DNA from: an uncultured virus (IMG/VR IMGVR_UViG_3300032245_000303)
Taxonomy: Duplodnaviria; Heunggongvirae; Uroviricota; Caudoviricetes
Length of the DNA stretch: 64,000 bases
IMG/VR virus record: IMGVR_UViG_3300032245_000303
Strand: one strand, 5' to 3'
The notes beneath the pieces were generated by a model. That model did not search any database and was not told the DNA's origin. It was given only the letters and a program-made list of their open reading frames with translations. This document shows, piece by piece, positions 3,194 through 64,000 of this stretch; the stretch's first letter is position 1, and every line of letters starts with the position of its first letter. Both the position numbers and the translations under genes were made by a program.

Positions 3194-3194
3194 G

Positions 3195-4274: not shown

Positions 4275-4290
4275 TTAAGGAGAAATAAAC

Positions 4291-5199: not shown

Positions 5200-5222
5200 T
5201 TAAGCATTTGATATGTACTACT

Positions 5223-5250
5223 AAAAAGGGGCTTAATTGCCCCTTTTTTT
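5223..5250 (+). terminator. Rho-independent terminator after the capsid gene
   Basis: AAAAAGGGGC-TTAATT-GCCCCTTTTTTT hairpin with U-tract. Confidence 0.85.
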
Positions 5251-5296
5251 ATTTATAATTACTTGCTTTATGATAAAAATGTAGTAATATAGTTAT

Positions 5297-5377
5297 ATCC
5301 GGGTAATCCGGTTTATTAGACTGTCCCGGCAGATACATACATAACTAATAAACTTAACTTTGTATGAAGGATAAATT
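5297..5377 (+). promoter_or_regulatory. Candidate structured (pseudoknotted) 5' leader of ORF 5378
   Basis: GTTTATTAG/CTAATAAAC stem. Loop segments CCCGG and CATACA are complementary to flanking CCGGG and TGTATG. Promoter-like TTGCTT(5263)-16-TAATAT(5285) upstream. Confidence 0.5.
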
Positions 5378-5872
5378 ATGGCTCGTTCTACCACACTAGC
5401 TGTTTGGCGCTCTAACGGTGGGGACCAAACACGCACTACTACCGCCGGTTCAATGTTAATGACTGTTCCGTTTTATATTGCAAACGTTGCAGCAACAGCA
5501 AACGTTGTTGTTTCATCAAGCTTAACTACTACTCCAGTTGTTTTACCAGCTAACGCAGTTGTTACAAATGTTACTGTAACAGCAACAGGTACAGGTAAAA
5601 TTGATTTAGGCTTTACACCACTATCAAATATTGGTCCAGGACAAACACCTGCAACAGGTACAGCAGTTCCAACAGGTTTATTATCTAATGCATCTACAGC
5701 ATCTCGTGCAGTATTTGCAGTTGGTGGTGCTAATACAGGCGCTTCATTAGGTAATGTTGCTAATGCTACTAATGTAGTTGTTATTACATCAGCTGCTAAT
5801 GGCGCAGCTTCAGGTACATCAAGCGGTTATATTAGCTTCTATGTATCTGATAACGGTCAACAACAAAACTAA
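5378..5872 (+). CDS. Putative virion structural protein
   Basis: A/T/G/V-rich beta-type protein in the head module. Confidence 0.5.
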   Translation: MARSTTLAVWRSNGGDQTRTTTAGSMLMTVPFYIANVAATANVVVSSSLTTTPVVLPANAVVTNVTVTATGTGKIDLGFTPLSNIGPGQTPATGTAVPTGLLSNASTASRAVFAVGGANTGASLGNVANATNVVVITSAANGAASGTSSGYISFYVSDNGQQQN

Positions 5873-5919
5873 TTAATCTAGGGGGCTTTTGCCCCCATTA
5901 AAATTTAAGGAGATTAATT

Positions 5920-6432
5920 ATGACAATGCAATATGATGTAAAACAGGCACATCTTAATGGTAGTGGTATTTTAGTACCATTTACTACTCGCATTAAAGGG
6001 TTGTCAATTACTGGCACTGCAACTGCAGGAACACTAACTTTATTTGATACAGTAACAGCACCTGTAACTACAGCTACATATGGTCGTTCAGGAACTACGG
6101 TAACAATTACTCAATCAGCTCACGGTTTAACAACTGGACAAGTTATTGGTATTGACTTTGCTGCAGGTACAGGCGGAACTGCTACTAATGGTAACTATGC
6201 TGTTACAGTTACTAATTCTAGTACCTTTACTGTTACAGATATTAATAGTGGCACAATTACTGCTAGTCCATCCCTTGTATATTCAACAGGTAAATGGTTA
6301 GCTTCATATGATATAGCAGCAGGAGATAGTTATAATAATGCACCATTTATTCCAGGAGAAGGCGTAAAAGCTGTTACTGGAGTATATGCTTATATGACTA
6401 ATTTAACTGCAGTAAATATTTACTATGGCTAA
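5920..6432 (+). CDS. Putative virion structural protein with an inserted beta domain
   Basis: AGGAG RBS. TVTITQSAHGLTTGQ...NGNYAVT...TFTV segment typical of phage structural decoration domains. Confidence 0.5.
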   Translation: MTMQYDVKQAHLNGSGILVPFTTRIKGLSITGTATAGTLTLFDTVTAPVTTATYGRSGTTVTITQSAHGLTTGQVIGIDFAAGTGGTATNGNYAVTVTNSSTFTVTDINSGTITASPSLVYSTGKWLASYDIAAGDSYNNAPFIPGEGVKAVTGVYAYMTNLTAVNIYYG

Positions 6433-6679
6433 AAAAGGTGTATCTCTAGCAATCGGACGTGGTGAGAAGCTCCCTGTATCAAAAGGTGCAGGTCTTACCG
6501 CTAAAGGTCGTGCTAAATATAATGCAGCTACTGGGTCAAACCTCAAGGCTCCTCAACCTCAAGGTGGTCCTCGCAAAAAGTCATTCTGTGCAAGAATGTC
6601 TGGTATGCCTGGTCCTATGAAAGATGAAAAAGGTAGACCAACTAGAAAGGCAGCGTCATTAAAACGCTGGAAATGTTAA
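6425..6679 (+). CDS. Small basic conserved phage protein
   Basis: GLTAKGRAKYN...RKKSFCARM...SLKRWKC; K/R-rich. Confidence 0.6.
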   Translation: MAKKGVSLAIGRGEKLPVSKGAGLTAKGRAKYNAATGSNLKAPQPQGGPRKKSFCARMSGMPGPMKDEKGRPTRKAASLKRWKC

Positions 6680-12658: not shown

Positions 12659-14518
12659 ATGGCTCTTGCATTAAATGACCGTGTCCAGCAACAGGGTACG
12701 GCTAACACCACAGTCAGCTTTACCCTAACTACCTCAGTTACTGGGTTTCAATCCTTTGCTGTTATTGGCAATGGAAATACAACCTATTATGCTGCTACAG
12801 ACGCATCAGGTAATTGGGAAGTAGGTGTTGGTACTTATTCAACTACTGGCCCTACATTAACGCGTACAACAATCCTAGCTTCAAGTAATTCTGGTAGCGC
12901 TGTTACCTTTTCTGGCACAGTCAATGTCTTTGTTACATACCCTGCTTCAAAATCTATTAATTACGATGGTAGTGGTGTTGCTACTATTGGTTCTGTATTA
13001 GGCTATTCAGACACAGGTATTATTGGTTCATTTGCATCTACTGTTGCAGGTTACAATCAAGTTATTGTTCAAAATAAAAGCACATCATCTAGTGCATCAT
13101 CTAACTTTAATGTATCTAACGATGCTGCAACATCTACTACAGGGTATGCCGAATTAGGTATTAACTCTTCTACATTCTCAGGTACAGGCTCCTTTAATAT
13201 TGCAGGCGCTTCTTATTTAGCTTCTGCGTCTACAGATTTAACAATTGGTACATACGGTGCATATAACGTTCACTTTGTAACTAATAGTAATACTACTGAT
13301 GCTATGACTATCTTTAATTCAGGTGGCGTTTCATTAGGCGGATATGGCGACCCTGGTATTGGTACTTTATATGCCAATAATGTATACGTAGGTTTTAATA
13401 CAATTACAGCCGCTGCTGGTACTACTATATTAACCAATGCTTCTGCAGGATGGCAACAAGTTGTAGGTACTACGACTCAAACCATTCAATTACCTGTTGC
13501 TACCACACTATACAAAGGTCTAGCCTTTACTGTTGCAAATAACTCAACAGGCTCAGTTACTATTAAAGATAGTGCATCTACTACAATTGATACTGTAATT
13601 ACTGGCGGTACAGCGGTTATAGTTTTAACCAATAATACGACTTCAGCAGGCTCTTGGACTGCGTATAGTTATATACCCGCTAGTTATGATTTTAATAATA
13701 CCTCGGCTTCATTTAATAATGCATCTATTAGTAGTGCAGTATGGAATGGGACTACTATTGGAACTGCGTATGGTGGCACAGGATTAACATCTTTTGGTGC
13801 GGCTAACTATGCTCTCTATTCAACATCAAGTTCAGCTCTAGCAGCGGGTACACTTCCTGTTGCAGCAGGTGGTACAGGGGCTACTACTTTAACAGGTTAT
13901 GTCTATGGTAATGGTACAGGGGCTTTTACAGCATCTACAACAATTCCAACTTCTGCTTTATCAGGTAACTATGTAAGTACATTTAGTGCAGGTACAACAG
14001 GATTTACACCAAGTACAGCAACCACGGGCGTAGTAACTTTAGCAGGCACATTAAACGTAGCCAACGGTGGTACAGGACAAACAACATATACAGATGGCCA
14101 ACTTTTAATTGGTAATTCAACAGGTAATACGCTTACTAAAGCATCTTTAACACCCGGTACTGGCATATCTATTACTGCTGGTTCAGGTTCAATTACAATT
14201 GCAAACACAGCAGCAGCTGCTTCAATATCTAACGATACATCAACAACATCTAATTTATATCCCTTATTTGCCGCAGCAACATCAGGTACACCTACTACAA
14301 TTTATACTTCAAATGCGAAGTATTTATACAAGCCATCTACAGGTGATTTACAAGCATCTCAAGTAATAGCAAGTAACGGATTAATGGTAAATAATGCTAC
14401 AATAGCAACAAGTTATACAATCGCAACGGGATATAATGCATCATCAGTAGGCCCAGTTACATTATCAACTGGCGTAAGTGTGACGGTTCCATCAGGTAGC
14501 CGTTGGGTAGTTTTATAG
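12659..14518 (+). CDS. Tail fibre protein
   Basis: MALALNDRV...WEVGVGTY...LTRTTILASSN N-terminus, repeated GGTG fibre motifs, and C-terminal GPVTLSTGVSVTVPSGSRWVVL. Confidence 0.75.
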   Translation: MALALNDRVQQQGTANTTVSFTLTTSVTGFQSFAVIGNGNTTYYAATDASGNWEVGVGTYSTTGPTLTRTTILASSNSGSAVTFSGTVNVFVTYPASKSINYDGSGVATIGSVLGYSDTGIIGSFASTVAGYNQVIVQNKSTSSSASSNFNVSNDAATSTTGYAELGINSSTFSGTGSFNIAGASYLASASTDLTIGTYGAYNVHFVTNSNTTDAMTIFNSGGVSLGGYGDPGIGTLYANNVYVGFNTITAAAGTTILTNASAGWQQVVGTTTQTIQLPVATTLYKGLAFTVANNSTGSVTIKDSASTTIDTVITGGTAVIVLTNNTTSAGSWTAYSYIPASYDFNNTSASFNNASISSAVWNGTTIGTAYGGTGLTSFGAANYALYSTSSSALAAGTLPVAAGGTGATTLTGYVYGNGTGAFTASTTIPTSALSGNYVSTFSAGTTGFTPSTATTGVVTLAGTLNVANGGTGQTTYTDGQLLIGNSTGNTLTKASLTPGTGISITAGSGSITIANTAAAASISNDTSTTSNLYPLFAAATSGTPTTIYTSNAKYLYKPSTGDLQASQVIASNGLMVNNATIATSYTIATGYNASSVGPVTLSTGVSVTVPSGSRWVVL

Positions 14519-31886: not shown

Positions 31887-34800
31887 ATGCCTCGTGTGAC
31901 CATACCGGGTGTTGGAGATGTCCAATTTCCCAATAACTTATCTCGTGATGAAATCATGCGTCAAGCTGAAGAGATGCAGGCTAAAGCATCTCAACCTATA
32001 CTTGACCCAAAAGATTTACCTATGGGAGAACTTATTAAGGGTGGGTTTGCAAGAAGTACTGAAAGTCTTAAAGGTACTGCACTTGATTTAATACCAGCAT
32101 TAGCTGCTTCTACTTTCGGCAATGATGAATATGCCAAAGGTCAAATGGAAGAATATAAACAACGTATGGCAGACGTTGAACAACAATATCCTACTGCTTA
32201 TCAATCGTATAAAGATATTAATAGCGTCGGTCAAGCATTTGACTATGGCGCAGAAAACTTTGGTCAATTAGCACCTGATATGATTTCATTTGCACTTGGT
32301 GCAGGTGTTGGTTCTACAGCAGGTAAATATACAGCTAAAAAAGGTTTAGAAAGAGCGTTAGAAGAACATGCCGCTGAGTATGCTACAAAACAAGGATTAA
32401 CTAAAGAGGCAGAAGCTGCATATGTTTCTCGATTAAAAAACCGTGCTACTGAAGGAGCATTACAAAAACAAGCATTAGAACATGGTGCTGATATAGGTCT
32501 AAAGACAGGACTATGGGGTTCTTCTTTATCTATGAACGTACCTGATACGTTTAATCAAATCTATCAAGAGACAGGTTCACTAGAGCCGGGACTAGCGCTT
32601 ACTGTAGGTCCACTTGTTGCAGCACTTGATGTTATTACACCTGAAAGATTCCTCAGACAAATTAGTCCTGCAGGTAAACAACTTGTAGCTAATGAATTAC
32701 TACAAAAATCTGAATTAGTTCCTCTTGCATGGAAAAGAGAATTCGGCAAAGAAGTTCTTAAAAATGCTGGAGCAGAAGGTTTAACTGAAGGCGCACAACA
32801 AGCATTACAAAATTATGGGTCTCAATTAGCAGGTGCTAAAGACACAGTATTCTCACAACATAGTATTGATAGTATTCTTGATGCGTCATTAAGAGGTGCA
32901 TTAGGTGGTTCTTTATTTGGTGCACCTGGCGCTGCATTTGAAGCTAATCGTAGTAAACAAGCTAGACAAACTGCTATTGATACACAACAACGTCAACAAC
33001 AAATACAATCAAATCAACAATTATTATATCCTACACAACTTGCTGAACAACAAGGTGGTGCAGAACCCTCAGCTACAGTAGGAGAACCTCCTATACAAGG
33101 TGGACCACAAACTCAATTTGAGTTACCTATCCCTACAGCAACAGTTGGTGAAGCACCTATTCAAGCTGGTGAAAAATTTACTTTTGCTATAAATACTCCT
33201 GAGGGTATAAAAACTCCAGAACAAATACTTCTTGAAACTATACAAGAACATCAGCAACAACAAGATATACAAGTAAAAAATAAACAAGCTACCGTTGAGA
33301 ATATTCGTAAGGGAGATTTAAATTCAACACCAGTACAAAATGCAACTGTAGAAAATATAAAGGTAGCAGCTGCACCTGAAGTAACTACGCCGGAAACAAC
33401 ACATATACTAGATGCAGATAAATTAAAAGCATTAGGATTAAAAGAAAATGCTGGGATATTTAAACGACTTGTTGATAAAGATTTATCAAAATCAACAGAT
33501 ATAGTTGCAGCTAAGGAAGTTTTACAGGAAGCTCTTAAAAATAAAAACTTTACCCCAGAACTAAAAACTGCATTAAATAATATAATAAATGAAGGGGTTG
33601 AATATGGAAAAGGACTTAATACTATCGGAACAACAGATAGAACAAGGGATGAAGTTTCTAACGGACCCGCAGAATCTGGAGATACCGAAGGACTTGGAGA
33701 ATCTCAAGGAATATCAGTGGATAATACTGGAAGACCTGTTACTTCACCTACAACAAGAAAAAAATTACAACCAGGTGCATTAAAAGAAAAACGTGCAACA
33801 CTACAAGAACAAATAGATAACATAAAAAAAGATTCTATATGGGTTAATAATAACATAATAGGTATGTCAGAAGATTATGTCGAAGAAAGATATGGTCGAC
33901 CAATAAAATATTTTACAGACGTACTTAAATCTAATGAAGAAGAAATAGCTCATAGACAAGATGCTATTAATCGTGGTGAAGTTTATGACGATGCTTTAAT
34001 TGAACGTAGATTTGGTAAAAAACAAACACCTGAAGTACCTGTAGAAGTTAATGAAGCTGATAGAGTTGCAATTGAAAATCAAAAGAAAGGTAAACCATCT
34101 AAAGAAGCTACTGAAGGTACTAATATATGGCAGGATTATTGGACTATACCCGTAAAAAGTTTTGCTCCAGTGCTTACTTATGATGGCTTTTTTAAACAAG
34201 ATATTAGTAATGTAGATGACCAACTAACAGTTCGTTTTGATTTATTACAAAACCAAAAAGAAGACCCTTCACAACTTAAGAATCTTAGCCAATCTGAAAT
34301 AAAAGATTTTTATGAACAAAGAAATGCTGCAAAAATATACTTTGGTAAAATGAAACGAATTGTTGACAATCTAGTTAATATTGGATTTGACCTAGCATAT
34401 AAAACCCCTGTATTTAAACCTACTACTGAAACAACAGAAGAAGCACGATTTTTTGAAGGACTTAATGGTAAGAATGCTGCGCTTGCTACTGCTTGGGTAC
34501 GTAAAAATTTAAGTAAAGAAACTAATATTATACTTGACGATATATTTAGAATATATAGAAGAGCTTCATCAGAGCAGTCACAAAAGAATTTTATTAATAA
34601 TTTACAAGATGCCTTTAGTGGAAAAAAAGACCCTAGACCAAGAGATTCAACCATGCAAGGTTATTATGATGCACAAGCTGCAGATGTTAAACGTGCAGCG
34701 GAAGTAAAAGAAAAGCAAAGACCTTTCCATTATGAACAACATATGGGTCAAAGAATAAAAGTATATGACATTATTAAAGATGCTATATCTAACCTATCAC

Positions 34801-37800
34801 AAGTACTACATCCTCGTATTGTTCAAGCGTTACAACAAGGTGATTTAAAAACAGCACTTAGTTATTTAACTGCTAATGAAAATGCATTTATTGCGAAAAC
34901 TGCAAATCGTTTTTCTCAAATTGCGTCAAACACAAAAGTTAGAGTTGAGCCGAATCTAGTTAGTATCGAAGGTAAAAAGGTTCCAGGTTATTATGACCCA
35001 CGTAATAACACTATTTATTTAGATGCAGACCAAGGTATGAATACTCATGTGCTATTACATGAAGTAGGTCACTCTGTTATTTCTCATGAACTAGATAATC
35101 CTGATAGTCAATTAGCTAGACAATTAAAACAAATATTTGATGATGTTAAAGATACATTAGATACTGCATACGGTGCAGAAAATGTACAAGAGTTTGCAGC
35201 TGAAGCATTAGCAAATTCAGAATTTAGAGCAAAGTTACAAGGTATTAATCCTCAAGGTAAAGCAATCAGTGCATGGGATAAATTTAGCCGTGCAATTACT
35301 AATTTTTTACGCAGATTAGTTGGTATGCCTTCTAAACCGCTACAATCGGCCTTAGATGAAGTTGACCGTATTATTGATGCCCTCATATCACCAGCACCAA
35401 ATTATCGCAATAGTGGCGCATTACACGCGCCGGCAAACGCAAAGAGCCCTGAAATTTTTACAGGTATAAATAAATTTGTAAACGCTACACCACTTTTAGG
35501 TACTGAACAAAAAGTTGCAATAGCTTCTGGATTAGAAACTTCATCACAATTAACTAAGAGTATAGTTCTATCTATATTACCTACATACGCAGTGGGGGAA
35601 TTGTCAAAAGATATATTACCGGAAAGTATGAATTTTGATAAAGCTATTCTTGCACGGGATGAATTTAGAGCTACACTATATGAAGGATTAGAAGCAGTTA
35701 TAGATGAAGCTAAAGAAGCTATTAAAACAAGACCAGAACAACGTACAGCATTTAATAATGTAGTTAATCAAAGTACAATACATGAAGTAGACCCTACTAA
35801 AAATGAATCCGAGTATACAGATGCAGATAGTATTACTAAATATAAAGAAATAAAAGCTGAATATAATAAGTTATCTTCTCAATGGAAAAAATTATATACG
35901 TCTATGCGAGATGCATATAAACAAATATTTGAAGAATTAAAAGAGTCTATTCGTTCACGTATTGATGCTACTGATTTAGATAATCCGACTAAAGAAAGAC
36001 TTAAAAAAGATATTCTATCTGAGCTTTCTAAAAAAGGACTTATTGACCCTTATTTTGCATTAGGTCGTGAAGGAGATAAATGGTTAGCATTTAATTATAT
36101 TACTAAAGACGGTACACCTGACCGCGCACAAGAAGCGTTTAAGACTGATTACGAACGTAAACTTCGTATGGAACAACTACAAAAACTTGGTGTAACTGAA
36201 ATAGAACCTTATTCTCAAGTATCAGATATTAATTATAGACGTGCGCCATCAGGTTCTTTTGCTAACCAAGTACTAAGACTTTTAGAAGCTAACAGACCAC
36301 AAGAGAGTGAATCAGCTAAAAAATTTGATTCGGCTATTGATGAAATGATGCGACTATTTGTATCCACATTGCCGGAAACAGCTGCAGCTAAAGCATTCCT
36401 AAAACGTAAAAATACAACTGGATATATGGAAGATACCATTGGAGTATTTGAACGTAAGGGACGTAACATGATTCGTCAAATTTCTAATATGAAATATAAT
36501 CCACAAATTACTGCTGTTGTAGATAAAATGCAAGAACATGTTATTAAAGTAGGTAAAGGTGCAGTCCCTGAATTAAACGCAGATGGTACTCAAAAAATAG
36601 GGCTTGATGGAAACCCCGTATTTAAACCTGCACGAGATAACTCATTAGAATTATCTTACTTACAAGAGTATGAAAAACGTCTACCTTATACTCTTAATCC
36701 TAAAACAAATGATTTAGGAGCTACGCTATCTTCCGGTGCATTCATATATACATTAGGATGGAACATTTCTTCAGCTATTGTCAACGCTGCTAACATTCCT
36801 ATGATTGTAATTCCTACTTTAAAAGGGGAATACCCTAATGCTGATGTAGCTAAAGAAGTTTTTAATGTTACCAAAATTTATGCACAATCTGGTAGAACTA
36901 AAGATATAGAAGTTCTTGGAGGTGGTGGCCGTAAACGAAAAATGACTGTTGGATTATCACTAGATAATTATGACCCTAACTCAGAAATAGGTAGACATTA
37001 TGCTCCATTACTAAAAGCTATGCATGAGCAAGGACAAATAAGAAGGTCTCAGTTATATGAAATGCTACAAGGAGATACTCGTACTGGGCTTATTCAAAGA
37101 GTTGCTGCATCTGCTGGATGGTTTATGCATGAAGGTGAACGTATGAATCGCGAAGTTACTGCAGGTACTGTTTATAATTTAGAGCTAAAAAAACTTATGC
37201 CAGATGTTAAATCCGGCAAAATAACATTTGAAGAAGCAGGAGACCTAGCAGGTAATAAAGCAGTATATCTTACTCAACTTACTAATGGTGGTATATCTTC
37301 AGCTCAAACACCACGTATAGCACAAAGTGCTTTAGGTAAAATATTTTTTATGTATAAGAAATATGGTGCTTCTATGTATTTCTTATTACTTAATACTGCT
37401 AGAAAAGCATTTAATGAAAATTTATCTACTACTGAACGTAAAGCTGCATGGCAACAACTAGGTGGTATTATGGGTATGTCTGCTCTTATGGCAGGTGTAG
37501 GTGGTGTTCCAATGTTTGGTATGTTGTCGCTAATTTATTCAATGTTTAGTGACGATGACGACGATGACTTAGATACTGTTACACGTAAATATATGGGAGA
37601 CTTCTTATATAAAGGCCCTGCTGAATACATGACAAACTTGTCTCTTGCAAGTCGTATATCATTAAGTGATTTAATTATACGTGATACTAAAGGTGGTACC
37701 CATGCATCTACGTTTGCGGAACAAATGATGGAAGCTGTTGGTGGCCCTGTTTATGGAGTCTATGGAAGAATATCTCGTGGATATAGCAAGATGCAAGAAG

Positions 37801-38288
37801 GTAACTTTGAACGTGGATTAGAAGATATGATGCCTTCAGCTATAAGTAACTTATTAAAAGCTGGTCGATATGGTATGGATGGTACAAGTAGTTTACGTGG
37901 TGACCCAATTACAGGTGATGTAAATGCATGGAACATTGGTGCTCAAGCATTTGGTTTTGCTCCAGCCGATTATACTAAACAAATTGAAATTAATGCTCAT
38001 CTAAAAGGTATTGACAAAACGGTTAATCAAAAAGCAAGTAAGTTACGTAGTAAATGGAATATGGCTCGTACCGTTGGAGATGCAGACGCTATGGAAGAAG
38101 CAAAAGACGACCTTATTAAATTAGGTGAGAAGCACCCTGGGCTTGGTGTTAATGCTGGCACTATTACATCTGACTTAGAAAAATCTAAGAAACAATTTGA
38201 CCGTGCTACTAAAGAGATGGTTAATGGTGTACGTTATTCTAAAAAGATGTTAAAAGAACTTAAAGCAGACGCAGCTGAGTACCAATAA
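31887..38288 (+). CDS. Giant (2133 aa) internal virion protein with zincin-like HExxH domain
   Basis: GYYDP..NTIYL...HVLLHEVGH...EFAAEA; last gene of the late arm, as for large podovirus ejection proteins. Confidence 0.65.
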   Translation: MPRVTIPGVGDVQFPNNLSRDEIMRQAEEMQAKASQPILDPKDLPMGELIKGGFARSTESLKGTALDLIPALAASTFGNDEYAKGQMEEYKQRMADVEQQYPTAYQSYKDINSVGQAFDYGAENFGQLAPDMISFALGAGVGSTAGKYTAKKGLERALEEHAAEYATKQGLTKEAEAAYVSRLKNRATEGALQKQALEHGADIGLKTGLWGSSLSMNVPDTFNQIYQETGSLEPGLALTVGPLVAALDVITPERFLRQISPAGKQLVANELLQKSELVPLAWKREFGKEVLKNAGAEGLTEGAQQALQNYGSQLAGAKDTVFSQHSIDSILDASLRGALGGSLFGAPGAAFEANRSKQARQTAIDTQQRQQQIQSNQQLLYPTQLAEQQGGAEPSATVGEPPIQGGPQTQFELPIPTATVGEAPIQAGEKFTFAINTPEGIKTPEQILLETIQEHQQQQDIQVKNKQATVENIRKGDLNSTPVQNATVENIKVAAAPEVTTPETTHILDADKLKALGLKENAGIFKRLVDKDLSKSTDIVAAKEVLQEALKNKNFTPELKTALNNIINEGVEYGKGLNTIGTTDRTRDEVSNGPAESGDTEGLGESQGISVDNTGRPVTSPTTRKKLQPGALKEKRATLQEQIDNIKKDSIWVNNNIIGMSEDYVEERYGRPIKYFTDVLKSNEEEIAHRQDAINRGEVYDDALIERRFGKKQTPEVPVEVNEADRVAIENQKKGKPSKEATEGTNIWQDYWTIPVKSFAPVLTYDGFFKQDISNVDDQLTVRFDLLQNQKEDPSQLKNLSQSEIKDFYEQRNAAKIYFGKMKRIVDNLVNIGFDLAYKTPVFKPTTETTEEARFFEGLNGKNAALATAWVRKNLSKETNIILDDIFRIYRRASSEQSQKNFINNLQDAFSGKKDPRPRDSTMQGYYDAQAADVKRAAEVKEKQRPFHYEQHMGQRIKVYDIIKDAISNLSQVLHPRIVQALQQGDLKTALSYLTANENAFIAKTANRFSQIASNTKVRVEPNLVSIEGKKVPGYYDPRNNTIYLDADQGMNTHVLLHEVGHSVISHELDNPDSQLARQLKQIFDDVKDTLDTAYGAENVQEFAAEALANSEFRAKLQGINPQGKAISAWDKFSRAITNFLRRLVGMPSKPLQSALDEVDRIIDALISPAPNYRNSGALHAPANAKSPEIFTGINKFVNATPLLGTEQKVAIASGLETSSQLTKSIVLSILPTYAVGELSKDILPESMNFDKAILARDEFRATLYEGLEAVIDEAKEAIKTRPEQRTAFNNVVNQSTIHEVDPTKNESEYTDADSITKYKEIKAEYNKLSSQWKKLYTSMRDAYKQIFEELKESIRSRIDATDLDNPTKERLKKDILSELSKKGLIDPYFALGREGDKWLAFNYITKDGTPDRAQEAFKTDYERKLRMEQLQKLGVTEIEPYSQVSDINYRRAPSGSFANQVLRLLEANRPQESESAKKFDSAIDEMMRLFVSTLPETAAAKAFLKRKNTTGYMEDTIGVFERKGRNMIRQISNMKYNPQITAVVDKMQEHVIKVGKGAVPELNADGTQKIGLDGNPVFKPARDNSLELSYLQEYEKRLPYTLNPKTNDLGATLSSGAFIYTLGWNISSAIVNAANIPMIVIPTLKGEYPNADVAKEVFNVTKIYAQSGRTKDIEVLGGGGRKRKMTVGLSLDNYDPNSEIGRHYAPLLKAMHEQGQIRRSQLYEMLQGDTRTGLIQRVAASAGWFMHEGERMNREVTAGTVYNLELKKLMPDVKSGKITFEEAGDLAGNKAVYLTQLTNGGISSAQTPRIAQSALGKIFFMYKKYGASMYFLLLNTARKAFNENLSTTERKAAWQQLGGIMGMSALMAGVGGVPMFGMLSLIYSMFSDDDDDDLDTVTRKYMGDFLYKGPAEYMTNLSLASRISLSDLIIRDTKGGTHASTFAEQMMEAVGGPVYGVYGRISRGYSKMQEGNFERGLEDMMPSAISNLLKAGRYGMDGTSSLRGDPITGDVNAWNIGAQAFGFAPADYTKQIEINAHLKGIDKTVNQKASKLRSKWNMARTVGDADAMEEAKDDLIKLGEKHPGLGVNAGTITSDLEKSKKQFDRATKEMVNGVRYSKKMLKELKADAAEYQ

Positions 38289-52829: not shown

Positions 52830-54020
52830 TTAATCAATATGTACTGCCACACCCACATTAGGTGTCGCACGTTTATTACCTTGTATGCACCATATTAATG
52901 GTACACTCCATGCACCCCATGAGTTGCCCAAGTGTCCGTCTGTCAATACCACTACACATTCGGGTTTGATGCCATGCTCATTCATATAGCTTGGTACACA
53001 CTCGACCATAGTTCCACCACCACCTTTCGGCTTAGTAGCTTTAGGTAAGTTGTCTAACTCATCTTGGTTATATACTTCGTGACCACATACTTCGGTATCC
53101 CAATAAAGTACACGTACCTTACTTGGCTTGACACTATCACATATACCCTTGACTTCTGAAAGAAATGCACGTAGTTCTCTCTCGCCGATTGAACCCGACG
53201 TGTCGATTGCTACGACTATCTCACCGATTGACTCACTGATACTACTTGGCATTAACATGTTATAACCTATGTATCGTCGATTAGGTTTGCGCCATGTCGA
53301 ATAGTCTTTGCCTGCACACGTGGTAGATACAAAGTCTCGTAAGAGTTCGCGCCAATCTTTCTTAGGCTCGAGTAAATCTTTTAAGTCACGTAGTCCACCC
53401 GTACCCATCTTGCCTGCCATGATTGCACCTTGACGTACTGCTTCATCAATCTCACGTGCTAGGGCTTCGGCTTCATCACTCGATAGTTCTTTAGCACCTG
53501 CCCAATCATGTTCATCGAAACCTTGCCCATCACCTTGCTTACCTTGACCTTGCCCTTGACCATCATCACCACTATCCTCTAGTAGTTTAAATACTTGGTC
53601 TGTGTTCATGTTGGTGTACTTACTATCCATGAGTCCACCTTGTGGCATCTTAATCCACTGACTCTTGTATGCGTCTGTGTCTGCAAGTTTAAGGTTAATC
53701 ACATAGTCACATGCTTGGTTAGTTCGCATAGAGTCTATCTGATTAAGATGTTGCCATGTACTAAGATGTCGGTACATCTTGTGATAGCACTCATGTAGCA
53801 TAACAAATCTGAATTCGGCATCACTTAACTTATCTACAAATGCTCTGCCATACATTTCATCTTTGCCATTAGTACATGCAGTAGGTACATCATCTACCAC
53901 CTTCTTACTACCAATCATCAATACACCTGCGAGTGCTACAAATTCATCTCGACCAATGATGTCGGTCGTTGCTTTATACAAGCGTTGTTCTGCCGTTAAA
54001 GTTTTACCTATGTTTAACAT
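52830..54020 (-). CDS. Metallopeptidase-VWA protein (DUF2201-like)
   Basis: PTACTNG, LHECYH (HExxH), N.ACDYVIN; VWA MIDAS motif IDTSGS, GGGGT, VLTDG. Confidence 0.85.
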   Translation of the reverse strand: MLNIGKTLTAEQRLYKATTDIIGRDEFVALAGVLMIGSKKVVDDVPTACTNGKDEMYGRAFVDKLSDAEFRFVMLHECYHKMYRHLSTWQHLNQIDSMRTNQACDYVINLKLADTDAYKSQWIKMPQGGLMDSKYTNMNTDQVFKLLEDSGDDGQGQGQGKQGDGQGFDEHDWAGAKELSSDEAEALAREIDEAVRQGAIMAGKMGTGGLRDLKDLLEPKKDWRELLRDFVSTTCAGKDYSTWRKPNRRYIGYNMLMPSSISESIGEIVVAIDTSGSIGERELRAFLSEVKGICDSVKPSKVRVLYWDTEVCGHEVYNQDELDNLPKATKPKGGGGTMVECVPSYMNEHGIKPECVVVLTDGHLGNSWGAWSVPLIWCIQGNKRATPNVGVAVHID

Positions 54021-54054
54021 ATCATTCTCCTAGTTGTTAGTCGGTCGACTAACA

Positions 54055-55167
54055 TTATTTTTTATCGGCACTAAACATAAAGTTATTAGCAATACACCAT
54101 TCGGTAAACTTCTTATTACTCATGACGATTGCTTGTTTCTGATACTTAGGGTTTCTCACTTGCATAGCAAACAAGGCTTGTGCTTCTTTATCAAGTCTGT
54201 TTAGATATACCATAAACGAGTCAATGAAGTCTTTGTTCATAGTTGCCAATGCTCGATACACAATCATGACGATTGCTGATGATGACTCTGGAACTTTAGC
54301 TTCGAGTGGTTTCGTCTTAATATCTTCCTGTGTTGGAAGTTGGTCAACCAATTCGATATATGCATCTAGGTCTGCGCCACCACGTGCGCCAATAGTACCA
54401 ATCAAGTTGGACTTCAAGGCATTGTGACTTAACTTATCCTTAGCCCATAACCAATGAGACGCTAACTCGGCTGAACGTGGCGTAAAGAACGCAGGACGTT
54501 GAGCCTGTGGGTGATAGATATACGGATTACCACCTACTTCGTCGTCGGGTTTATCGACTTCCTCATACGATTGAAATAGTTGTTCACCATTTTCTTTGAC
54601 CCACATAATAAGTGATGGGTGTATTCCTGCATTGAACGCATAATTTTCTATCCATTCAGTTGCAGTTGGTTTCTTCATACGTATAACTGTGATACGATTT
54701 CTATGGTGGGGCATAAGTAAGTCACCAACACCTTCTGTGCCAAGATTAGTCGTTGCAAATACGATAGACTCGGGGTGCAATTTCTTATTCCCCATTGTTC
54801 TCTCTAACATAATTCGCATCATGCCATTCTTAACTGATGGGTTCGCTTTACCAAACTCGTCAATCATTAAGATGATGGGCTTATCATGGTGCATACCCAT
54901 TTCTTCGTTCGGTACAAACTTTACAAAGTCTTGAGTGTCATCACTTACTATTTTCGGCAACATCAAATCACCTAAATCTTTAGTGGTACAATCAAAATAA
55001 CATGGGATATGGTCGGGCAATTTACTTGCCAATATCTTAAGGATTGATGACTTGCCTGTACCCATATGACCTTGTACCAATGTTGTCACCTTGTGTCCTG
55101 TTGCTAAGATACTGTCTGCACACTCGTCGATAGATTGTGCGAATAAACTTTCTGCTGATTGTTTCAT
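54055..55167 (-). CDS. AAA+ ATPase (MoxR-like)
   Basis: Walker A GHMGTGKS, Walker B LMIDE, ATTN, NR, TPRS. Start set at MKQSAE (GGAG RBS). Confidence 0.85.
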   Translation of the reverse strand: MKQSAESLFAQSIDECADSILATGHKVTTLVQGHMGTGKSSILKILASKLPDHIPCYFDCTTKDLGDLMLPKIVSDDTQDFVKFVPNEEMGMHHDKPIILMIDEFGKANPSVKNGMMRIMLERTMGNKKLHPESIVFATTNLGTEGVGDLLMPHHRNRITVIRMKKPTATEWIENYAFNAGIHPSLIMWVKENGEQLFQSYEEVDKPDDEVGGNPYIYHPQAQRPAFFTPRSAELASHWLWAKDKLSHNALKSNLIGTIGARGGADLDAYIELVDQLPTQEDIKTKPLEAKVPESSSAIVMIVYRALATMNKDFIDSFMVYLNRLDKEAQALFAMQVRNPKYQKQAIVMSNKKFTEWCIANNFMFSADKK

Positions 55168-55213
55168 GTATGTCTCCATTTTAAAATTAAGTTAGTCGTC
55201 GGACTAACACGTA

Positions 55214-56618: not shown

Positions 56619-56844
56619 TTTCTATCCCTTCCATATAGTCTATAAAATCATCTCTATCCATATACGCTTTCAATACTGCTTTTATATGTGTAGCCATGGC
56701 TTGTCTATGTTCAACATCTTCACACTCGGGGTCTTTTAAAAACTCCAAGATAAGTTCATAGTATTCCTGCAAGTCTGTTATTACTATGTCGTTTATTTCA
56801 CTCTCATCTAGTTCATACCTAATATCAATGGTTTGATTACTCAT
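56605..56844 (-). CDS. Acidic hypothetical early protein
   Basis: D/E-rich, 79 aa. Confidence 0.5.
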   Translation of the reverse strand: MSNQTIDIRYELDESEINDIVITDLQEYYELILEFLKDPECEDVEHRQAMATHIKAVLKAYMDRDDFIDYMEGIENENN

Positions 56845-57392: not shown

Positions 57393-57592
57393 TTTGTTTC
57401 TCCTATTCTTTTACCATTAACTTCAATGTCATCATAGTTTTCACCTGTCACTACAATGTCATCACCAAAATACTTCTTAAAGATAGGTTCGATTTCACCT
57501 ACTGATATTATCTCGTAGGCTTCTTCTTCCGTCTCGGCTTCAACATCAAACATTTCCCGTGACTGCATTATTATTCTGTATCGCTTTGTCAT
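57389..57592 (-). CDS. Hypothetical early protein
   Basis: FDVEAETEEEAYE motif, common in small phage early proteins. Confidence 0.55.
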   Translation of the reverse strand: MTKRYRIIMQSREMFDVEAETEEEAYEIISVGEIEPIFKKYFGDDIVVTGENYDDIEVNGKRIGETK

Positions 57593-58895: not shown

Positions 58896-59270
58896 ATGGT
58901 GAACTTATTACCACAAGTTGCTTGTATGGCTATCGCTTTAATTGGTGAAACATACGGGGCTAACAATATCGAACTCACTCATGGTGTAGGTTATGTCATT
59001 ATGAACCGAGCCAATCAAGATGTTAATAGGATATGTTCCGTGACCGAAGCACCTTATCAGTTTGATGGTGTTAGAAAAGTATTACAAGGTAAGATGTATA
59101 TAGATGAAAAGACTTTGTTATCTTATGAGTTAATATCTTTACAGATAATGAACAAGCAAGTCACTAATCCAGTTGGCAATGCTACACATTTTCATGATGA
59201 CCGAGTAAAACCTTTTTGGTCTGTAGGTAGAAAAAAAATAATACGTATTGATAACATGACATTCTACTGA
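58896..59270 (+). CDS. SleB-like cell wall hydrolase (Hydrolase_2)
   Basis: CMAIALIGE...VGYVIMNR...ICSV...YQF...GNATHFH...KPFW...IDNMTFY. Confidence 0.8.
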   Translation: MVNLLPQVACMAIALIGETYGANNIELTHGVGYVIMNRANQDVNRICSVTEAPYQFDGVRKVLQGKMYIDEKTLLSYELISLQIMNKQVTNPVGNATHFHDDRVKPFWSVGRKKIIRIDNMTFY

Positions 59271-59701: not shown

Positions 59702-60208
59702 TTACTTAACCATTGCTTTCGCACTAGCTACGATTTTCTTGAAACCTGCTATATCAAAATTAGGTTCCTCAATCTTTTCTGCTACTTCTATCGCGTCATT
59801 GAGTGAGTCAATGATACGTTCTACTGCACTACGTGTGACGCGTGGCGCCGTTGATTTTGGCGTTTCAAAATCTATCAAAGCGCGTTTTACTTTTCCATAA
59901 TAAGAGCCGACTTGCATTTGCGCGTAGCGCTTTTCGGTCTTATCGCTTTCGCTAAGCGTCTTAGTATCCTTAGCTAACAATGACTGCCATGTCACAGGCA
60001 ACCCTTTTATAATTGCTTGAGTGATACCAAATTGCAACGTGGCGTTTGGGTTCGCGTCAGTCTTTTTGCTAGGCTTATCTAACATTGATGACTTCACACC
60101 ATCTGCGACTAGTAAATCAGTCATCTTTTTAGTTTTACCTTTTACATCTTGAGTAGCACTAACAACGTTAGTGATTGATACTTGAGTTAGTTCTTTTAAT
60201 GTAGCCAT
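59702..60208 (-). CDS. First gene of the early arm, basic hypothetical protein
   Basis: AGGA RBS, TATAAT upstream at 60269-60274 (- strand), and its own terminator. Confidence 0.6.
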   Translation of the reverse strand: MATLKELTQVSITNVVSATQDVKGKTKKMTDLLVADGVKSSMLDKPSKKTDANPNATLQFGITQAIIKGLPVTWQSLLAKDTKTLSESDKTEKRYAQMQVGSYYGKVKRALIDFETPKSTAPRVTRSAVERIIDSLNDAIEVAEKIEEPNFDIAGFKKIVASAKAMVK

Positions 60209-60592
60209 GATATAAGTTTCCTATATAGTTAATGTCTGCATTGCGTTATTGCCTTGCCGACAGTTCCTATTATACGGGTTCTTGCCATGCCATGCTGAAA
60301 AGCCTGTTAGTCCTGTGACTAACATTGACCCCTATACCCCATTTTGTAGATTTGGTTCCATACCAACCTATAGGTCTACTATTACGCACACTACTAATCC
60401 AATATTTACAAATCACCCCCCGTCATCATTTTTAAGTACCTAGCCTAAAAAATTTTTTATATAAAAATCAAGCACTTAAGTTCACATAAAATTCGGCCGT
60501 GTAATTCATGGTTTTACGTAGGACATACTATATATAGGGGTGCACAATGCAGTTATACACACGGTGTGTATAAAATTTTAAGGAGTATTACG

Positions 60593-60670
60593 ATGGCAAC
60601 TTGGACTAAACCAGCAGCTACAGAAATGCGTTTTGGCTTTGAAGTGACTATGTACGTAATGAACAAATAA
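60593..60670 (+). CDS. pqqA: Pyrroloquinoline quinone precursor peptide PqqA (25 aa; not in ORF track)
   Basis: Manual translation MATWTKPAATEMRFGFEVTMYVMNK*, with the W-x-K-P...R-x-G-F-E-V-T-x-Y PqqA signature (ExxxY). AAGGAG RBS at 60580-60585. Confidence 0.95.
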   Translation: MATWTKPAATEMRFGFEVTMYVMNK

Positions 60671-60728
60671 TGATTATTGTAACGGACTGCTACTAAGTCA
60701 CAAATAAGTAATAATTGCGTTATATACT

Positions 60729-60751
60729 AAGGGGCCTCGTGCCCCTTTTTT
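60729..60751 (+). terminator. Rho-independent terminator after pqqA
   Basis: AAGGGGC-CTCGT-GCCCCTT followed by a T-run. Confidence 0.8.
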
Positions 60752-60777
60752 ATTGCTTTTTATGTATACTATATAGT

Positions 60778-61122
60778 ATGGCCCCCAAAATACTTACTAG
60801 ACGAAATTTAAGAATACTATATGGTGCACTTATTAAAATGCCACCGTTTAATCAGTATCGTATGCCTGCATCCCACAAGATTCAATTTGCAGTAAAGAAG
60901 TTAGACGGAGCCCTAGGATACTTTTATACAGAGCCTTGCCGAATTGAACTCGATATATCGAATGATACGTGGCATAAAATGAGTGAGACGTTATTGCATG
61001 AGATGATTCACTTGTGTCGATACCACAACGGCAAGTGGGATTTTGATTCACATAACCACAACTTCATGGGTTTGGCTCAAAGAATATGTGACATATATAT
61101 GTTTGATATAGACACGTTCTAA
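60778..61122 (+). CDS. SprT-like zinc metalloprotease
   Basis: ETLLHEMIH...H...F. Start set at MAPKIL because the listed upstream extension crosses the terminator. Confidence 0.7.
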   Translation: MAPKILTRRNLRILYGALIKMPPFNQYRMPASHKIQFAVKKLDGALGYFYTEPCRIELDISNDTWHKMSETLLHEMIHLCRYHNGKWDFDSHNHNFMGLAQRICDIYMFDIDTF

Positions 61123-61170
61123 CAAATTAATATATAATGCGCAAACCCCATATCAATCTGGACATAAGAT

Positions 61171-61815
61171 TTGATGCAACTAAACATAGAACCCGACGTA
61201 GGTATTGAGTTACCTGAAAACAATATTCCACTAGCTGACTTTAAAGAGAAAGCGGATGCCGCATGCGCGACAGCTGAGTATCTCGAACTAAAGATAGAAC
61301 CCACCGAAGAAGATAAAGAGAAAGCTGAAGAAGTTATTCTCAAGCTTGCTGAAGACCCAGACAAGGGGAACCGGAAAGCCCTGACGCAATCTAAACATTT
61401 TTCAGCGCCCACATATATACAGACTAAACACATATTAGATTCTTATGCGTTGAAGGTGGTTGAGAACGCCACACAGATAAGACTGTTAGTAACAAATAAA
61501 CTCATCCTGGAGTCAGAGAATGAAGATGCGAAGATTAGACTTCGTGCACTCGAGCTACTTGGTAAGATTACAGACGTGGGACTTTTCACAGAAAAATCAG
61601 AAGTCACAGTGAATAACCGTTCATCACAAGAGTTAGTCAATACACTCAAAGATAAAATTAGAAAACTTATGTACCCACAAGAAAATGTTCAGGACGCTGA
61701 GACTGTGGAGTCAGTTGAACTTGATGGTGAGACTGTAGATATAGATAAAGAATTAGGAATAGAACCTGCCGAATCTAACGAACAGTATGATGATGACACA
61801 GACAAACCAGCTTGA
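61171..61815 (+). CDS. Putative terminase small subunit
   Basis: RLRALELLGK...VGLFTEKSEVTV; directly upstream of and overlapping the large subunit. Confidence 0.65.
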   Translation: MMQLNIEPDVGIELPENNIPLADFKEKADAACATAEYLELKIEPTEEDKEKAEEVILKLAEDPDKGNRKALTQSKHFSAPTYIQTKHILDSYALKVVENATQIRLLVTNKLILESENEDAKIRLRALELLGKITDVGLFTEKSEVTVNNRSSQELVNTLKDKIRKLMYPQENVQDAETVESVELDGETVDIDKELGIEPAESNEQYDDDTDKPA

Positions 61816-63340
61816 GTCTTTAGATGATGTGGAATTAAATTTTCTCCTCAATAATTTAGATGAGTTTGATTTAACTGACCAGGAAGAAATAGACTTAGTA
61901 TTAGTTGAGTTAGAAAGACGTCAGAGTGCTCAAGCGTGTCGTGAGGACTTGATTGAGTTTTGTAAAAAGATGCAGTCTGATTATAAAGTGGGTAAGCACC
62001 ACAGACGACTTGCAGACTTGCTAATGAATATTGCAGAAGGTACTGAGACAAGAATATGTGTGAACATGCCACCTCGTCATGGTAAATCTCAACTTGTATC
62101 TATATATTTTCCAGCATGGTTCTTAGGAAAGTATCCAGATAAAAAAGTTTTGATGGTATCACATACGACTGACTTAGCGGTTGACTTTGGTAGAAAGGTA
62201 AGGAACTTAATTGATAATCCTGCATATAAACAAATATTTCCTACAGTTACTTTGGCTGCAGATAATAAATCTGCTGGTCGGTGGAATACGAATGTTGGCG
62301 GTGAGTATTTTGCTTGTGGTGTGGGTTCCGCTCTTGCTGGTCGTGGCGCTGATTTACTCCTTGTTGATGACCCTCACAACGAGCAGGATATTATTAGCGG
62401 GAACTTCGAGATATTCGAGAAGGCATATGAATGGTTTACATATGGTGCGAGAACACGACTTATGCCAAAAGGACGTGTCGCGATTGTACAAACTCGATGG
62501 CACCAAGATGACTTAACTGGACGTGTTGTCCGTGACATGCTCAATAATGAGGAAGCAGACCAGTATGAAGTGGTTGAGTTCCCTGCAATATTTAATGAAG
62601 GCGCTAAGGATGAGAAAGCACTTTGGCCAGAACAATATACCTTACAAGCATTACGTCAAACAAAAGCGTCCATGCCCGTGTTCCAGTGGAACGCACAGTA
62701 TCAACAGAATCCTACGGCAGAAGAAGCATCTGTTATAAAAAGGGAATGGTGGAATATATGGAAAGAAGAAAGACCACCACAATGTGAATATATTATTATG
62801 AGTCTTGATGCCGCAGCCGAAACTAACAATCGAGCTGACTTTACTGCCCTCACTACATGGGGAGTATTTATGAATGAGGAAAAAGAAGCGTATAATATAA
62901 TACTATTAAATAGTATTAAGAAACGGTTAGAATTTCCAGACCTAAAAGATTTAGCTTTAAATGAGTATAAAGAATGGGAACCTGATAGTTTTATTGTAGA
63001 AAAGAAGTCAGCAGGTACAGCTTTATATCAAGAATTAAGAAGAATGGGTATGCCGGTGCAAGAATATACCCCACATCGTGGAAGTGGTGATAAACTAGCA
63101 AGATTAAATAGTGTAGCCGATATTGTAAAGTCTGGACTATGTTGGATACCAGAAGCAAGGTGGGGCGAAGAAGTTATAGAAGAAATTGCAGGATTTCCAT
63201 TTATGAGTCATGATGACTTGGTGGACTCAACCACAATGGCACTCATGCGATTCAGACAAGGTGGGTTTATTAGGTTACCTTCAGACGAACCTGATGAATT
63301 AAAAATGTTTAAGTCAAGAAGAACTAAAGGTTATTACTAA
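61787..63340 (+). CDS. Terminase large subunit
   Basis: NMPPRHGKS (Walker A), GRGADLLLVDDP, QTRWHQDDL, YQQNP, SLDAA, HDDLVDS. Confidence 0.95.
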   Translation: MMMTQTNQLESLDDVELNFLLNNLDEFDLTDQEEIDLVLVELERRQSAQACREDLIEFCKKMQSDYKVGKHHRRLADLLMNIAEGTETRICVNMPPRHGKSQLVSIYFPAWFLGKYPDKKVLMVSHTTDLAVDFGRKVRNLIDNPAYKQIFPTVTLAADNKSAGRWNTNVGGEYFACGVGSALAGRGADLLLVDDPHNEQDIISGNFEIFEKAYEWFTYGARTRLMPKGRVAIVQTRWHQDDLTGRVVRDMLNNEEADQYEVVEFPAIFNEGAKDEKALWPEQYTLQALRQTKASMPVFQWNAQYQQNPTAEEASVIKREWWNIWKEERPPQCEYIIMSLDAAAETNNRADFTALTTWGVFMNEEKEAYNIILLNSIKKRLEFPDLKDLALNEYKEWEPDSFIVEKKSAGTALYQELRRMGMPVQEYTPHRGSGDKLARLNSVADIVKSGLCWIPEARWGEEVIEEIAGFPFMSHDDLVDSTTMALMRFRQGGFIRLPSDEPDELKMFKSRRTKGYY

Positions 63341-63349: not shown

Positions 63350-64000
63350 ATGGCAACTAATATAGATAAAGGTTTATACGCAGCACCTCAAGGAATTGAA
63401 GAGGCAGCTCAACAAGAGGCTCCAATTGAAATACAAATTGAAGACCCTGAGTCTGTCAAAATTGGAATGGATGGCTTAGAAGTTATCCTTGACAATTCAG
63501 TAGAAAAAGGTGAAGACGAATTCAACGAAAATCTTGCAGAACTTTTATCTGATGGTGAGTTAGCTGAATTATCGGGTGATTTAATTGGTGATTTTGATGG
63601 CGATGTATCATCAAGAAAAGACTGGATACAAACTTATGTAGACGGTTTAGAGTTATTAGGTTTAAAAATTGAAGAAAGAGCTGAGCCATGGGAAGGCGCA
63701 TGTGGTGTATATCACCCGTTATTAGCTGAAGCTTTAGTTAAGTTCCAATCAGAAACTATGATGTCCATTTTCCCAGCAAAAGGACCCGTCAAAACTATCA
63801 TTGTTGGTAAAGAAACACCTGAAAAGAAAAAATCTGCTGAGCGTGTTGAAGATGATATGAACTATCAGCTCACAGAAGAGATGCCAGAATACCGTCCTGA
63901 GACCGAAAGAATGCTTTGGGGTCTAGGATTAGCAGGAAATGCGTTCAAAAAAGTCTATTATGACCCACAATTACAGCGTCAAGTGGCTATGTATGTACCT
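63350..64000 (+). CDS. Portal protein, N-terminal part (3' truncated; not in ORF track)
   Basis: Manual translation MATNIDKGLY...SRKDW...EPWEGACGVYHPLLAEA...GNAFKKVYYDP..., open to the window end. Confidence 0.85.
   Translation, partial: MATNIDKGLYAAPQGIEEAAQQEAPIEIQIEDPESVKIGMDGLEVILDNSVEKGEDEFNENLAELLSDGELAELSGDLIGDFDGDVSSRKDWIQTYVDGLELLGLKIEERAEPWEGACGVYHPLLAEALVKFQSETMMSIFPAKGPVKTIIVGKETPEKKKSAERVEDDMNYQLTEEMPEYRPETERMLWGLGLAGNAFKKVYYDPQLQRQVAMYVP

Follow-up and report, generated by a model that had tools for sequence, protein, structure and literature searches.

The Methylophilaceae, which include the LD28 and OM43 groups and relatives of these, are among the main methanol consumers of lakes and coastal seas, and their energy supply needs methanol dehydrogenases that depend on the cofactor PQQ. 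One PqqA peptide is consumed for every PQQ made, the enzymes PqqB-E being catalytic, and PqqA is a ribosomal peptide of about 20-40 aa, the N-terminal leader of which, of the W-T-K-P type, is the part to which PqqD binds. Phages are known to carry auxiliary metabolic genes for host components of fast turnover, as exemplified by cyanophage psbA, and also morons, which are self-contained transcription units inserted between phage genes. According to the accessible text of Beck et al. 2014 (PMC4109929), Methylophilaceae possess 3-12 pqqA copies as compared to a single pqqB-G, and the accessible part of a study on a PQQ-overproducing methylotroph (PMC9851590) places a stand-alone pqqA3 among the most expressed, its expression tracking the rate of PQQ synthesis. 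A single earlier report of a viral PqqA was found, that of Coutinho et al. 2020 (PMC7678222), which in its accessible text describes the gene in the Lake Baikal viral population VP_266. Viral PqqA as a kind is therefore already known, and the novelty claimed by the initial annotation of the locus studied here, made from the DNA letters by a model, was overstated.

We analyzed a stretch of 64,000 nucleotides from an uncultured member of the Caudoviricetes (IMG/VR record IMGVR_UViG_3300032245_000303), hereafter called the window, in which a phage-encoded, stand-alone pqqA had been proposed. Going by the accessible description of VP_266, both viruses carry pqqA, have a predicted freshwater methylotroph host and can be read as bearing an auxiliary metabolic gene for methanol oxidation; they are set apart by that same description, since VP_266 also encodes a methanol dehydrogenase and the window phage does not. 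Neither a cassette structure, nor mobility, nor presence in isolated Methylophilales phages is described for VP_266 in that text. As in the case of cyanophage psbA, the phage carries only the used-up part of an energy pathway and leaves the stable machinery to the host, with the difference that the product is a sacrificial precursor peptide of 25 aa rather than an enzyme or a reaction-centre protein, and that its benefit is putative. The resemblance to morons lies in a small insert between gene blocks, with expression signals of its own and missing from a near-identical relative; unlike in morons, the promoter is a predicted one. The terminator-like site is common to the relative devoid of pqqA. 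In the accessible text of the paper on phage Melnitz (PMC9004378), 'PQQ' or 'pyrroloquinoline' occurs at one place only, as a medium supplement, and a literature search covering few subscription journals found no paper combining MEP301 with PQQ beyond the Melnitz paper and its preprint. In main texts, again with few subscription journals, we found no prior report of this phage lineage, of the cassette structure or its two insertion sites, of the presence or absence of pqqA between near-identical phages, or of pqqA in every isolated Methylophilales phage.

A stand-alone pqqA in a near-complete phage genome

The window contains 84 ORFs of at least 90 aa, 60 of which were scanned against PHROGs, those nested in or antisense to longer ORFs being omitted. 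Matches were obtained for the terminase large subunit (61787-63340) and the major head protein (4291-5199), and further for tail fibres, an endolysin, a DNA polymerase, a helicase, a primase-helicase, an exonuclease and a virion protein of 2133 aa. The 60 ORFs scanned gave no match to an integrase or repressor family, and the window contains no tRNA. The nearest relative, a viral fragment of 21 kb termed G001, is 97-98% identical over most shared genes and extends from window position 50585 via 64000 into window positions 1-6546, with the two window ends 312 nt apart. The window thus represents all but about 0.3 kb of a genome of about 64.3 kb, which is circular or circularly permuted. An ORF open at its 3' end (63350-64000) and another open at its 5' end (1-1542) are in phase across the 312-nt gap given by G001 and probably form one portal-sized gene of about 834 aa; no Pfam or PHROG family was found for either half. 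When compared to 50,697 GenBank phage records, the window displayed DNA similarity beyond pqqA only over 181 nt of the terminase of Pelagibacter phage HTVC023P. Elsewhere in the genome, an AAA ATPase adjoins a DUF2201 protein (putative metallopeptidase with a VWA-like domain) at 52830-55179 on the minus strand, and the 2133-aa virion protein (31887-38288, plus strand) carries an LPD39 domain and a C-terminal region resembling DarB-type antirestriction helicases.

The pqqA ORF is located at 60593-60670 on the plus strand and consists of 25 codons and a stop, the translation of which is MATWTKPAATEMRFGFEVTMYVMNK. This peptide scored 42.1 bits (E 8e-11) against the Pfam profile PF08042, the cut-off of which is 21.1, and 40 bits against the NCBIfam equivalog TIGR02107, with a cut-off of 20, i.e. 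about twice the cut-off of both curated PqqA models. The gene had been proposed without any database search, with HMM scoring named as a check, and both the ORF and its identity are borne out; a PHROGs search with the peptide returned no family. The phage peptide has the length class, the W-x-x-P leader (W4-T-K-P7, as in host PqqA copies), the E-x-x-x-Y core (the cross-link pair reading Glu17-Val-Thr-Met-Tyr21) and the core sequence of bacterial PqqA; it differs in being phage-encoded and in having two extra N-terminal residues, MAT-W as compared to M-W in most hosts. Extended N-termini (MAW, MKW, MRW, MQW) are also present among bacterial copies, and most other phage copies among the matches listed begin with a plain MW. 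A longer reading from a GTG at 60566 was rejected, its start lying inside a hairpin and having no ribosome-binding site, and the ATG was taken as the start.

Bacterial copies were collected with a degenerate DNA pattern for MRFGFEVTMY, which yielded at least 126 bacterial loci and 130 distinct copies; since our pattern scans demanded this core intact, broken copies are invisible to them. The core of the phage peptide exactly matches that of the commonest Methylophilaceae PqqA: WTKPAATEMRFGFEVTMYVMNK is identical in 21 of the 130 bacterial copies and one residue off in 45 more (among the matches listed), and 21 of the 130, again among the matches listed, read MWTKPAATEMRFGFEVTMYVMNK, which is the phage peptide from W4 onward. 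At the DNA level, the phage coding sequence is 87-97% identical to bacterial copies, the best agreeing at 67 of 69 nt. Homologues of the other Pqq proteins were sought by tblastn with a Methylotenera PqqB/C/D/E set; none was found in the near-complete genome (best E 0.14), in agreement with the initial statement that the window holds no pqqB-E. The gene accordingly stands alone in a real phage genome, as had been proposed.

Anatomy and insertion sites of the cassette

In the window, pqqA is part of a cassette of about 195 nt (60502-60696, plus strand) that is missing from the 97-98% identical G001. The raw BLAST boundaries were 60479-60696 (218 nt), and were narrowed as the 26 replacement bases of G001 align to 60479-60501. 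The cassette contains an upstream box, a hairpin, a ribosome-binding site, the ORF and a 26-nt tail. The box, GGTTTTACGTA (60510-60520, plus strand), is situated 83 nt 5' of the ATG and could serve as a promoter, an UP element or an activator site. The hexamer CACAAT (60543-60548, plus strand) is a candidate -10 element by positional match to the CATAAT-, TATAAT- or CAGAAT-like hexamers found at the corresponding place in other cassettes, and would have transcription begin at about 60555, the base of the hairpin. A scan with the sigma-70 consensus flagged no promoter in the cassette, CACAAT included, and a cassette promoter is predicted from the conserved position among copies. The 5' stem-loop TTATACACA-CGG-TGTGTATAA (60553-60573, plus strand), with a perfect stem of 9 bp and a loop of 3 nt, lies just 5' of the Shine-Dalgarno sequence AAGGAG (60580-60585, plus strand), which had been noted initially and is found 7 nt before the ATG. 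The hairpin, also noted initially, is present and perfect; by itself it is not rare, as 5 distinct perfect 9-bp hairpins were observed in the window against about 2.9 expected, and we regard it as meaningful because hairpins recur at the same position in other copies. The 3' tail (60671-60696, plus strand) is kept in three other viral copies (L143, L160 and L178) and in no bacterial copy among the matches listed.

Downstream, a hairpin of the intrinsic-terminator type (GGGGCC-TCG-TGCCCC followed by a T-run, 60729-60751, plus strand) had been described as the gene's own terminator. Hairpin and T-run are indeed there, but outside the cassette, and they are common to the pqqA-less G001. The cassette sits exactly at the divergent junction of two gene blocks: the leftward block starts with a gene for which no family was found (59702-60208, minus strand; 77.5% identical to G001), and the rightward block starts with a gene for a SprT-like protein (60778-61122, plus strand) and leads to the terminase large subunit. 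The fold of the whole transcript (60535-60760) was not unusual overall (z = -0.58), and an Rfam search gave just two sub-threshold matches, to BjrC68 and MicX. Two candidate features were rejected: ATACTATATA as a recurrent phage promoter motif, with 12 matches against 15.2 expected and hence no enrichment, and the SprT-like neighbour with pqqA as a fixed module, the two occurring together in 6 viral loci at variable distances and on variable strands (among the matches listed).

The same order of elements was observed in several viral copies, namely a tcatGGTTTTAC(G/T)nA box, a spacer of about 20-25 nt, a CATAAT-like hexamer, a stem-loop, the ribosome-binding site and the ATG. Among the matches listed, many viral copies have the box at -80 to -93, and its occurrence in viral leaders shows a sharp maximum between -71 and -100 (26 of 44 loose matches); before some bacterial stand-alone copies it is located further upstream, at -102 to -124. 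The window leader, with its box at -83, is shorter than these host leaders and the phage unit resembles a host unit that has been shortened, to which the 26-nt 3' tail, known only from viral copies among the matches listed, comes as a further difference. Like many host copies, the phage gene stands alone with a leader hairpin and a terminator. A search for the box as CATGRTTTTAC in four Methylophilaceae genomes gave 2-5 matches in each against 1-2 for the reversed control, with no genome-wide enrichment; none of the matches in these four genomes precedes a placeable pqqA copy, and no regulon was demonstrated. Before some bacterial stand-alone copies (L121, L134 and L074), the box lies between two TTCATG(A) sequences that are about 23 nt from each other, and this pair may be the site of a regulator.

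Perfect hairpins of at least 6 bp at -55 to -9 were detected in 45 of 119 distinct viral leaders, as compared to 10.5 expected from shuffled sequences, and in 18 of 123 bacterial leaders, where 6.7 were expected; terminator-like hairpins within 130 nt downstream accompany 59 of the 119 viral and 104 of the 123 bacterial copies (all among the matches listed), with many viral loci being mutually related, so that these leader and terminator counts are not independent. The sequences of the leader stems vary between copies and their position is conserved, which favours an RNA structure at the 5' end of the transcript over a protein-binding site as the probable nature of the stem-loop. 5'-terminal structures of this kind protect mRNA from decay.

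G001 aligns to the window on both flanks of the cassette (97-98%) with the cassette missing; a gain in the window lineage or a loss in G001 would both fit this alignment. That the closest relative lacks pqqA indicates that the gene is dispensable. A second insertion site emerged from the IMG/VR loci: among the matches listed, 17 of 120 pqqA loci carry, upstream and on the same strand, a capsid protein 72-91% identical to that of the window phage, and in 13 of those 17 the capsid gene ends within 200 nt of pqqA. Alignment of these loci located the cassette between the terminator of the capsid gene and a conserved element preceding the next gene. In the window, the capsid terminator and the conserved element are both present (about 5200-5377), with no pqqA between them. 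Taken together, the capsid-site loci and the window locus indicate that one phage family holds the cassette at two sites; some members of the capsid family have it at neither site covered. We conclude from these alignments that the pqqA cassette is mobile. The synteny with terminase that had been envisaged for relatives was not supported, as homologues of TerL or the portal protein were found near only 1 of 120 viral loci (L150, among the matches listed), the closest relative is devoid of the gene and the capsid-family relatives have it after the capsid gene.

The conserved element at the capsid site is non-coding (about 5285-5377; CCGGGT-aat-CCGG, then tttattagactgtcccggcaga...), precedes a gene at 5378 and is retained in capsid-family relatives with or without a pqqA insertion before it; its function could be that of a promoter or of an RNA element. 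The window phage and G001 differ mainly by small-gene cassettes. G001 (L258, coordinates 12712-13644) has about 930 extra bases between its terminase and portal genes, missing at window 63324-63339, and other small differences are found at 56620-56841, at 57397-57589 and near 54018-54030. A homologue of the cell-wall hydrolase encoded at 58896-59270 in the window (Pfam Hydrolase_2) is located upstream of pqqA, on the opposite strand, in 12 viral loci among the matches listed (L138, L139, L151, L154, L156, L163, L167, L172, L173, L179, L200 and L215), where 518-820 nt separate the start of the match from the pqqA stop; in the window, the hydrolase gene and pqqA are 1.3 kb apart on the same strand.

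Hosts and viral carriers of pqqA

The initial annotation had proposed a methylotroph as the host, and the C-terminal tail of the peptide supports this. In a survey of the 80 loci with a printed title among the bacterial matches listed, all 44 copies with the tail ...YVMNK came from genomes labelled Methylophilaceae, its genera or broader taxa: 19 from Methylotenera, 14 from Methylophilaceae, 5 from Methylophilus, 2 each from Methylobacillus and Pseudomonadota, and 1 each from Ca. Methylopumilus and Nitrosomonadales. Methylophaga, Methylococcaceae and other groups have different PqqA tails among these matches. Contigs from runs of three further studies, labelled freshwater, lake-water and aquatic metagenome, contain the genes flanking the cassette at 88-99% identity, and a freshwater member of the Methylophilaceae is well supported as the host at the family level. 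pqqA was detected in each of the 61 Methylophilaceae genomes sampled and at more than one place in 59; the median was 4 matches per genome (range 1-12), matches not being strict copy numbers. Even a Ca. Methylopumilus genome of 1.3 Mb has 3 pqqA copies, all far from its single pqqE. Linkage to pqqBCDE, which the phage gene does not display, is therefore not a strict requirement, as host genomes also hold unlinked copies.

A tblastn of the 25-aa peptide against the GenBank phage collection matched 14 records, with the alignment spanning 80% or more of the peptide in 10 of them: Venkman, P19250A, MEP301, MEP401, MEP402, four Melnitz isolates and an uncultured phage from Manatee Spring. An intact pqqA is thus found in all 9 named Methylophilales or Methylophilaceae phage records and in one uncultured phage, with the T4-like Melnitz phages among the carriers. 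None of the 10 carrier records names pqqA; 5 have no feature under the match and 5 a 'hypothetical protein', encoded on the opposite strand in both records inspected. Two 'Acinetobacter phage MD-2021a' records were set aside, the inspected one (CAKLQF020000010.1) being a contig of bacterial type that contains pqqBCDE, and two matches to Rhizobium phages (E = 5) were discarded as noise. The former contig (L008), although filed as phage, carries ppk and a full pqqABCDE operon and resembles a bacterial chromosome. In the 7 distinct phages and the window, 8 out of 8 sequences have an ATG-started ORF of 23-25 codons, a Shine-Dalgarno-like sequence and an intact E-x-x-x-Y.

The pattern scan of IMG/VR detected at least 120 pqqA-bearing contigs belonging to several unrelated phage types. 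Among the matches listed, an ATG-started ORF with a Shine-Dalgarno-like motif is present in all 120 loci and no PqqB/C/D/E homologue was found near any of them, the flanks searched reaching up to 4 kb on each side for 80 loci and only about 300 nt for the other 40. Phage-family neighbours were recognized in 75 of 76 loci (two longest ORFs scanned; 134 of 150 proteins; among the matches listed). The contexts comprise exonuclease/Erf recombination modules, a T4-like clamp loader and polymerase, ribonucleotide reductase, terminases and the capsid module of the window phage; ten probe proteins left 55 of the 120 loci, among the matches listed, unclassified. Over the 12 codons free of the search pattern, pN/pS was 0.26 in 103 distinct viral sequences and 0.36 in 104 bacterial sequences (among the matches listed), which indicates purifying selection on the peptide at the sequence level. 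Some of the synonymous differences between viral copies may predate capture and stem from the hosts.

Proposed role of the phage gene

A host-derived metabolic gene is found here inside a bona fide phage genome, which is one mark of an auxiliary metabolic gene, and it forms a discrete insert between phage genes that is missing from close relatives, as morons do. Most likely, it is an auxiliary gene of host origin that would supply a consumable precursor to the PqqBCDE enzymes of the host. We consider it probable that the phage copy keeps precursor flowing to these enzymes in infection and thereby sustains methanol dehydrogenase activity. In the mechanism that we propose, pqqA would have been captured from a Methylophilaceae host as a self-contained expression cassette of about 200 bp, comprising a host-type upstream box, a -10-like element, a 5' stem-loop, a strong ribosome-binding site and the 25-codon ORF, with a terminator after it. 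The RNA polymerase of the host would probably transcribe this cassette into a tiny, stable, hairpin-capped mRNA, the peptide would be bound by host PqqD and cross-linked between Glu17 and Tyr21 by host PqqE, and the remaining host Pqq enzymes would finish PQQ, the cofactor of the periplasmic methanol dehydrogenases. As PqqA is consumed with each PQQ and PqqB-E are catalytic, the phage need carry only the consumable part. The benefit would consist in maintaining cofactor supply, and hence methanol-derived energy, once host transcription falters. Of this scheme, we infer the promoter, expression, conversion to PQQ and fitness benefit. Among the sequencing runs listed for this stretch, none is recorded as RNA, and one run presumed to be RNA contained 5% of the sampled words.

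It could be argued that pqqA is instead an attachment site or a passive host fragment, left by integration into, or past recombination with, a host pqqA, in which case the ORF would have no role in infection. Short, highly conserved, multi-copy host sequences such as pqqA are of the type targeted by temperate phages, the identity of the phage DNA to bacterial copies reaches 97%, and recombination modules adjoin pqqA in some carriers (P19250A/Venkman/MEP301 type). An attP with its integration module would consist of an integrase and a partial target gene; the near-complete genome has no integrase among the 60 ORFs scanned, and the whole ORF, start, Shine-Dalgarno sequence and leader are kept in all 8 phages examined, the window phage included, and in all 120 viral loci among the matches listed. 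Furthermore, carriers include the T4-like Melnitz phages, pN/pS of the viral copies is low (0.26, as given above for the matches listed), identity to the host is not above that expected for a conserved coding gene, and homology stops at the leader and the ORF. Altogether, we judge this explanation very unlikely.

A nucleic-acid element (a promoter or terminator insulator, an operator palindrome or a small RNA at an early/late junction), with the ORF as a mere passenger, was also considered. The position of the cassette exactly at the divergent junction fits such a function, a protein could just as well bind the hairpin sequence, which is perfectly palindromic, and the terminator exists without pqqA in G001. 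Nevertheless, it is the ORF that is constant across phages whereas leader hairpin sequences and insertion sites vary; the cassette has no Rfam match and the peptide is under purifying selection, and these observations together leave the nucleic-acid explanation little credit.

A decoy role for PqqD/PqqE had been raised in the initial annotation as the alternative to precursor supply: the phage peptide would tie up PqqD/PqqE or stop host PQQ synthesis, for instance redirecting resources. Its two extra N-terminal residues could be read in this sense. However, similar extensions exist in bacterial copies and most other phage copies among the matches listed have the plain MW start. Moreover, a loss of the cross-linking residues would be expected from a decoy, and from W4 to the C-terminus the peptide is identical to the host substrate, Glu and Tyr included; this identity of the core makes a decoy highly improbable.

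Finally, an assembly chimera, in which host pqqA reads were misjoined into a phage contig, might be suspected from the pqqA stretch being a high-depth repeat that breaks contigs, yet there is phage sequence on both sides, contigs of two other studies bridge each junction and related phages carry the cassette as well, so that this explanation is hardly credible. The coding bin 60605-60671 had a summed contig depth of 24-3445 in four runs, as compared to 0-20 in the flanking phage bins, and the repeat breaks short contigs to the extent that no listed contig piece spans the whole region. Chimerism was nonetheless checked on the junctions: a contig of run X8, from another study, connects 60634-60696 to 60757-61559 and has a variant terminator in between, run X5, from a third study, provides a contig linking 60337-60457 to 60602, and one of run X1, possibly from the source sample, extends from 60637 to 61600 with no difference. 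The two contigs from other studies bridge both junctions, and the locus is not chimeric. Several IMG/VR contigs end within about 100 nt of pqqA (e.g. L164, L186, L203 and L216), and assemblies probably under-report phage pqqA.

Supply of a consumable precursor by an auxiliary gene of host origin would have implications beyond this genome. Genes this small are skipped by gene callers, no GenBank carrier record names pqqA and PHROGs has no family for it; being both skipped by callers and, as a high-depth repeat, a breaking point of assemblies, pqqA is likely to be badly under-counted in viral surveys. The presence of a stand-alone pqqA in at least four unrelated phage types suggests that, in infection, methylotrophy is vulnerable at the supply of the precursor. 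Tentatively, since we give it somewhat less than an even chance, pqqA may be a signature auxiliary gene of methylotroph phages, a cassette of about 200 bp with the control box of host pqqA hopping between lineages (siphoviruses, T4-like myoviruses, Zobellviridae and the family of about 64 kb) and between sites within a lineage, PqqA supply being what fails first when host transcription is shut off. The existing isolated phage-host pairs (P19250A, Venkman, Melnitz and the MEP phages) could test the idea of precursor supply directly. If the signature-gene reading is true, lakes and coastal seas would have, in infected cells, a major source of PQQ that is under viral control.
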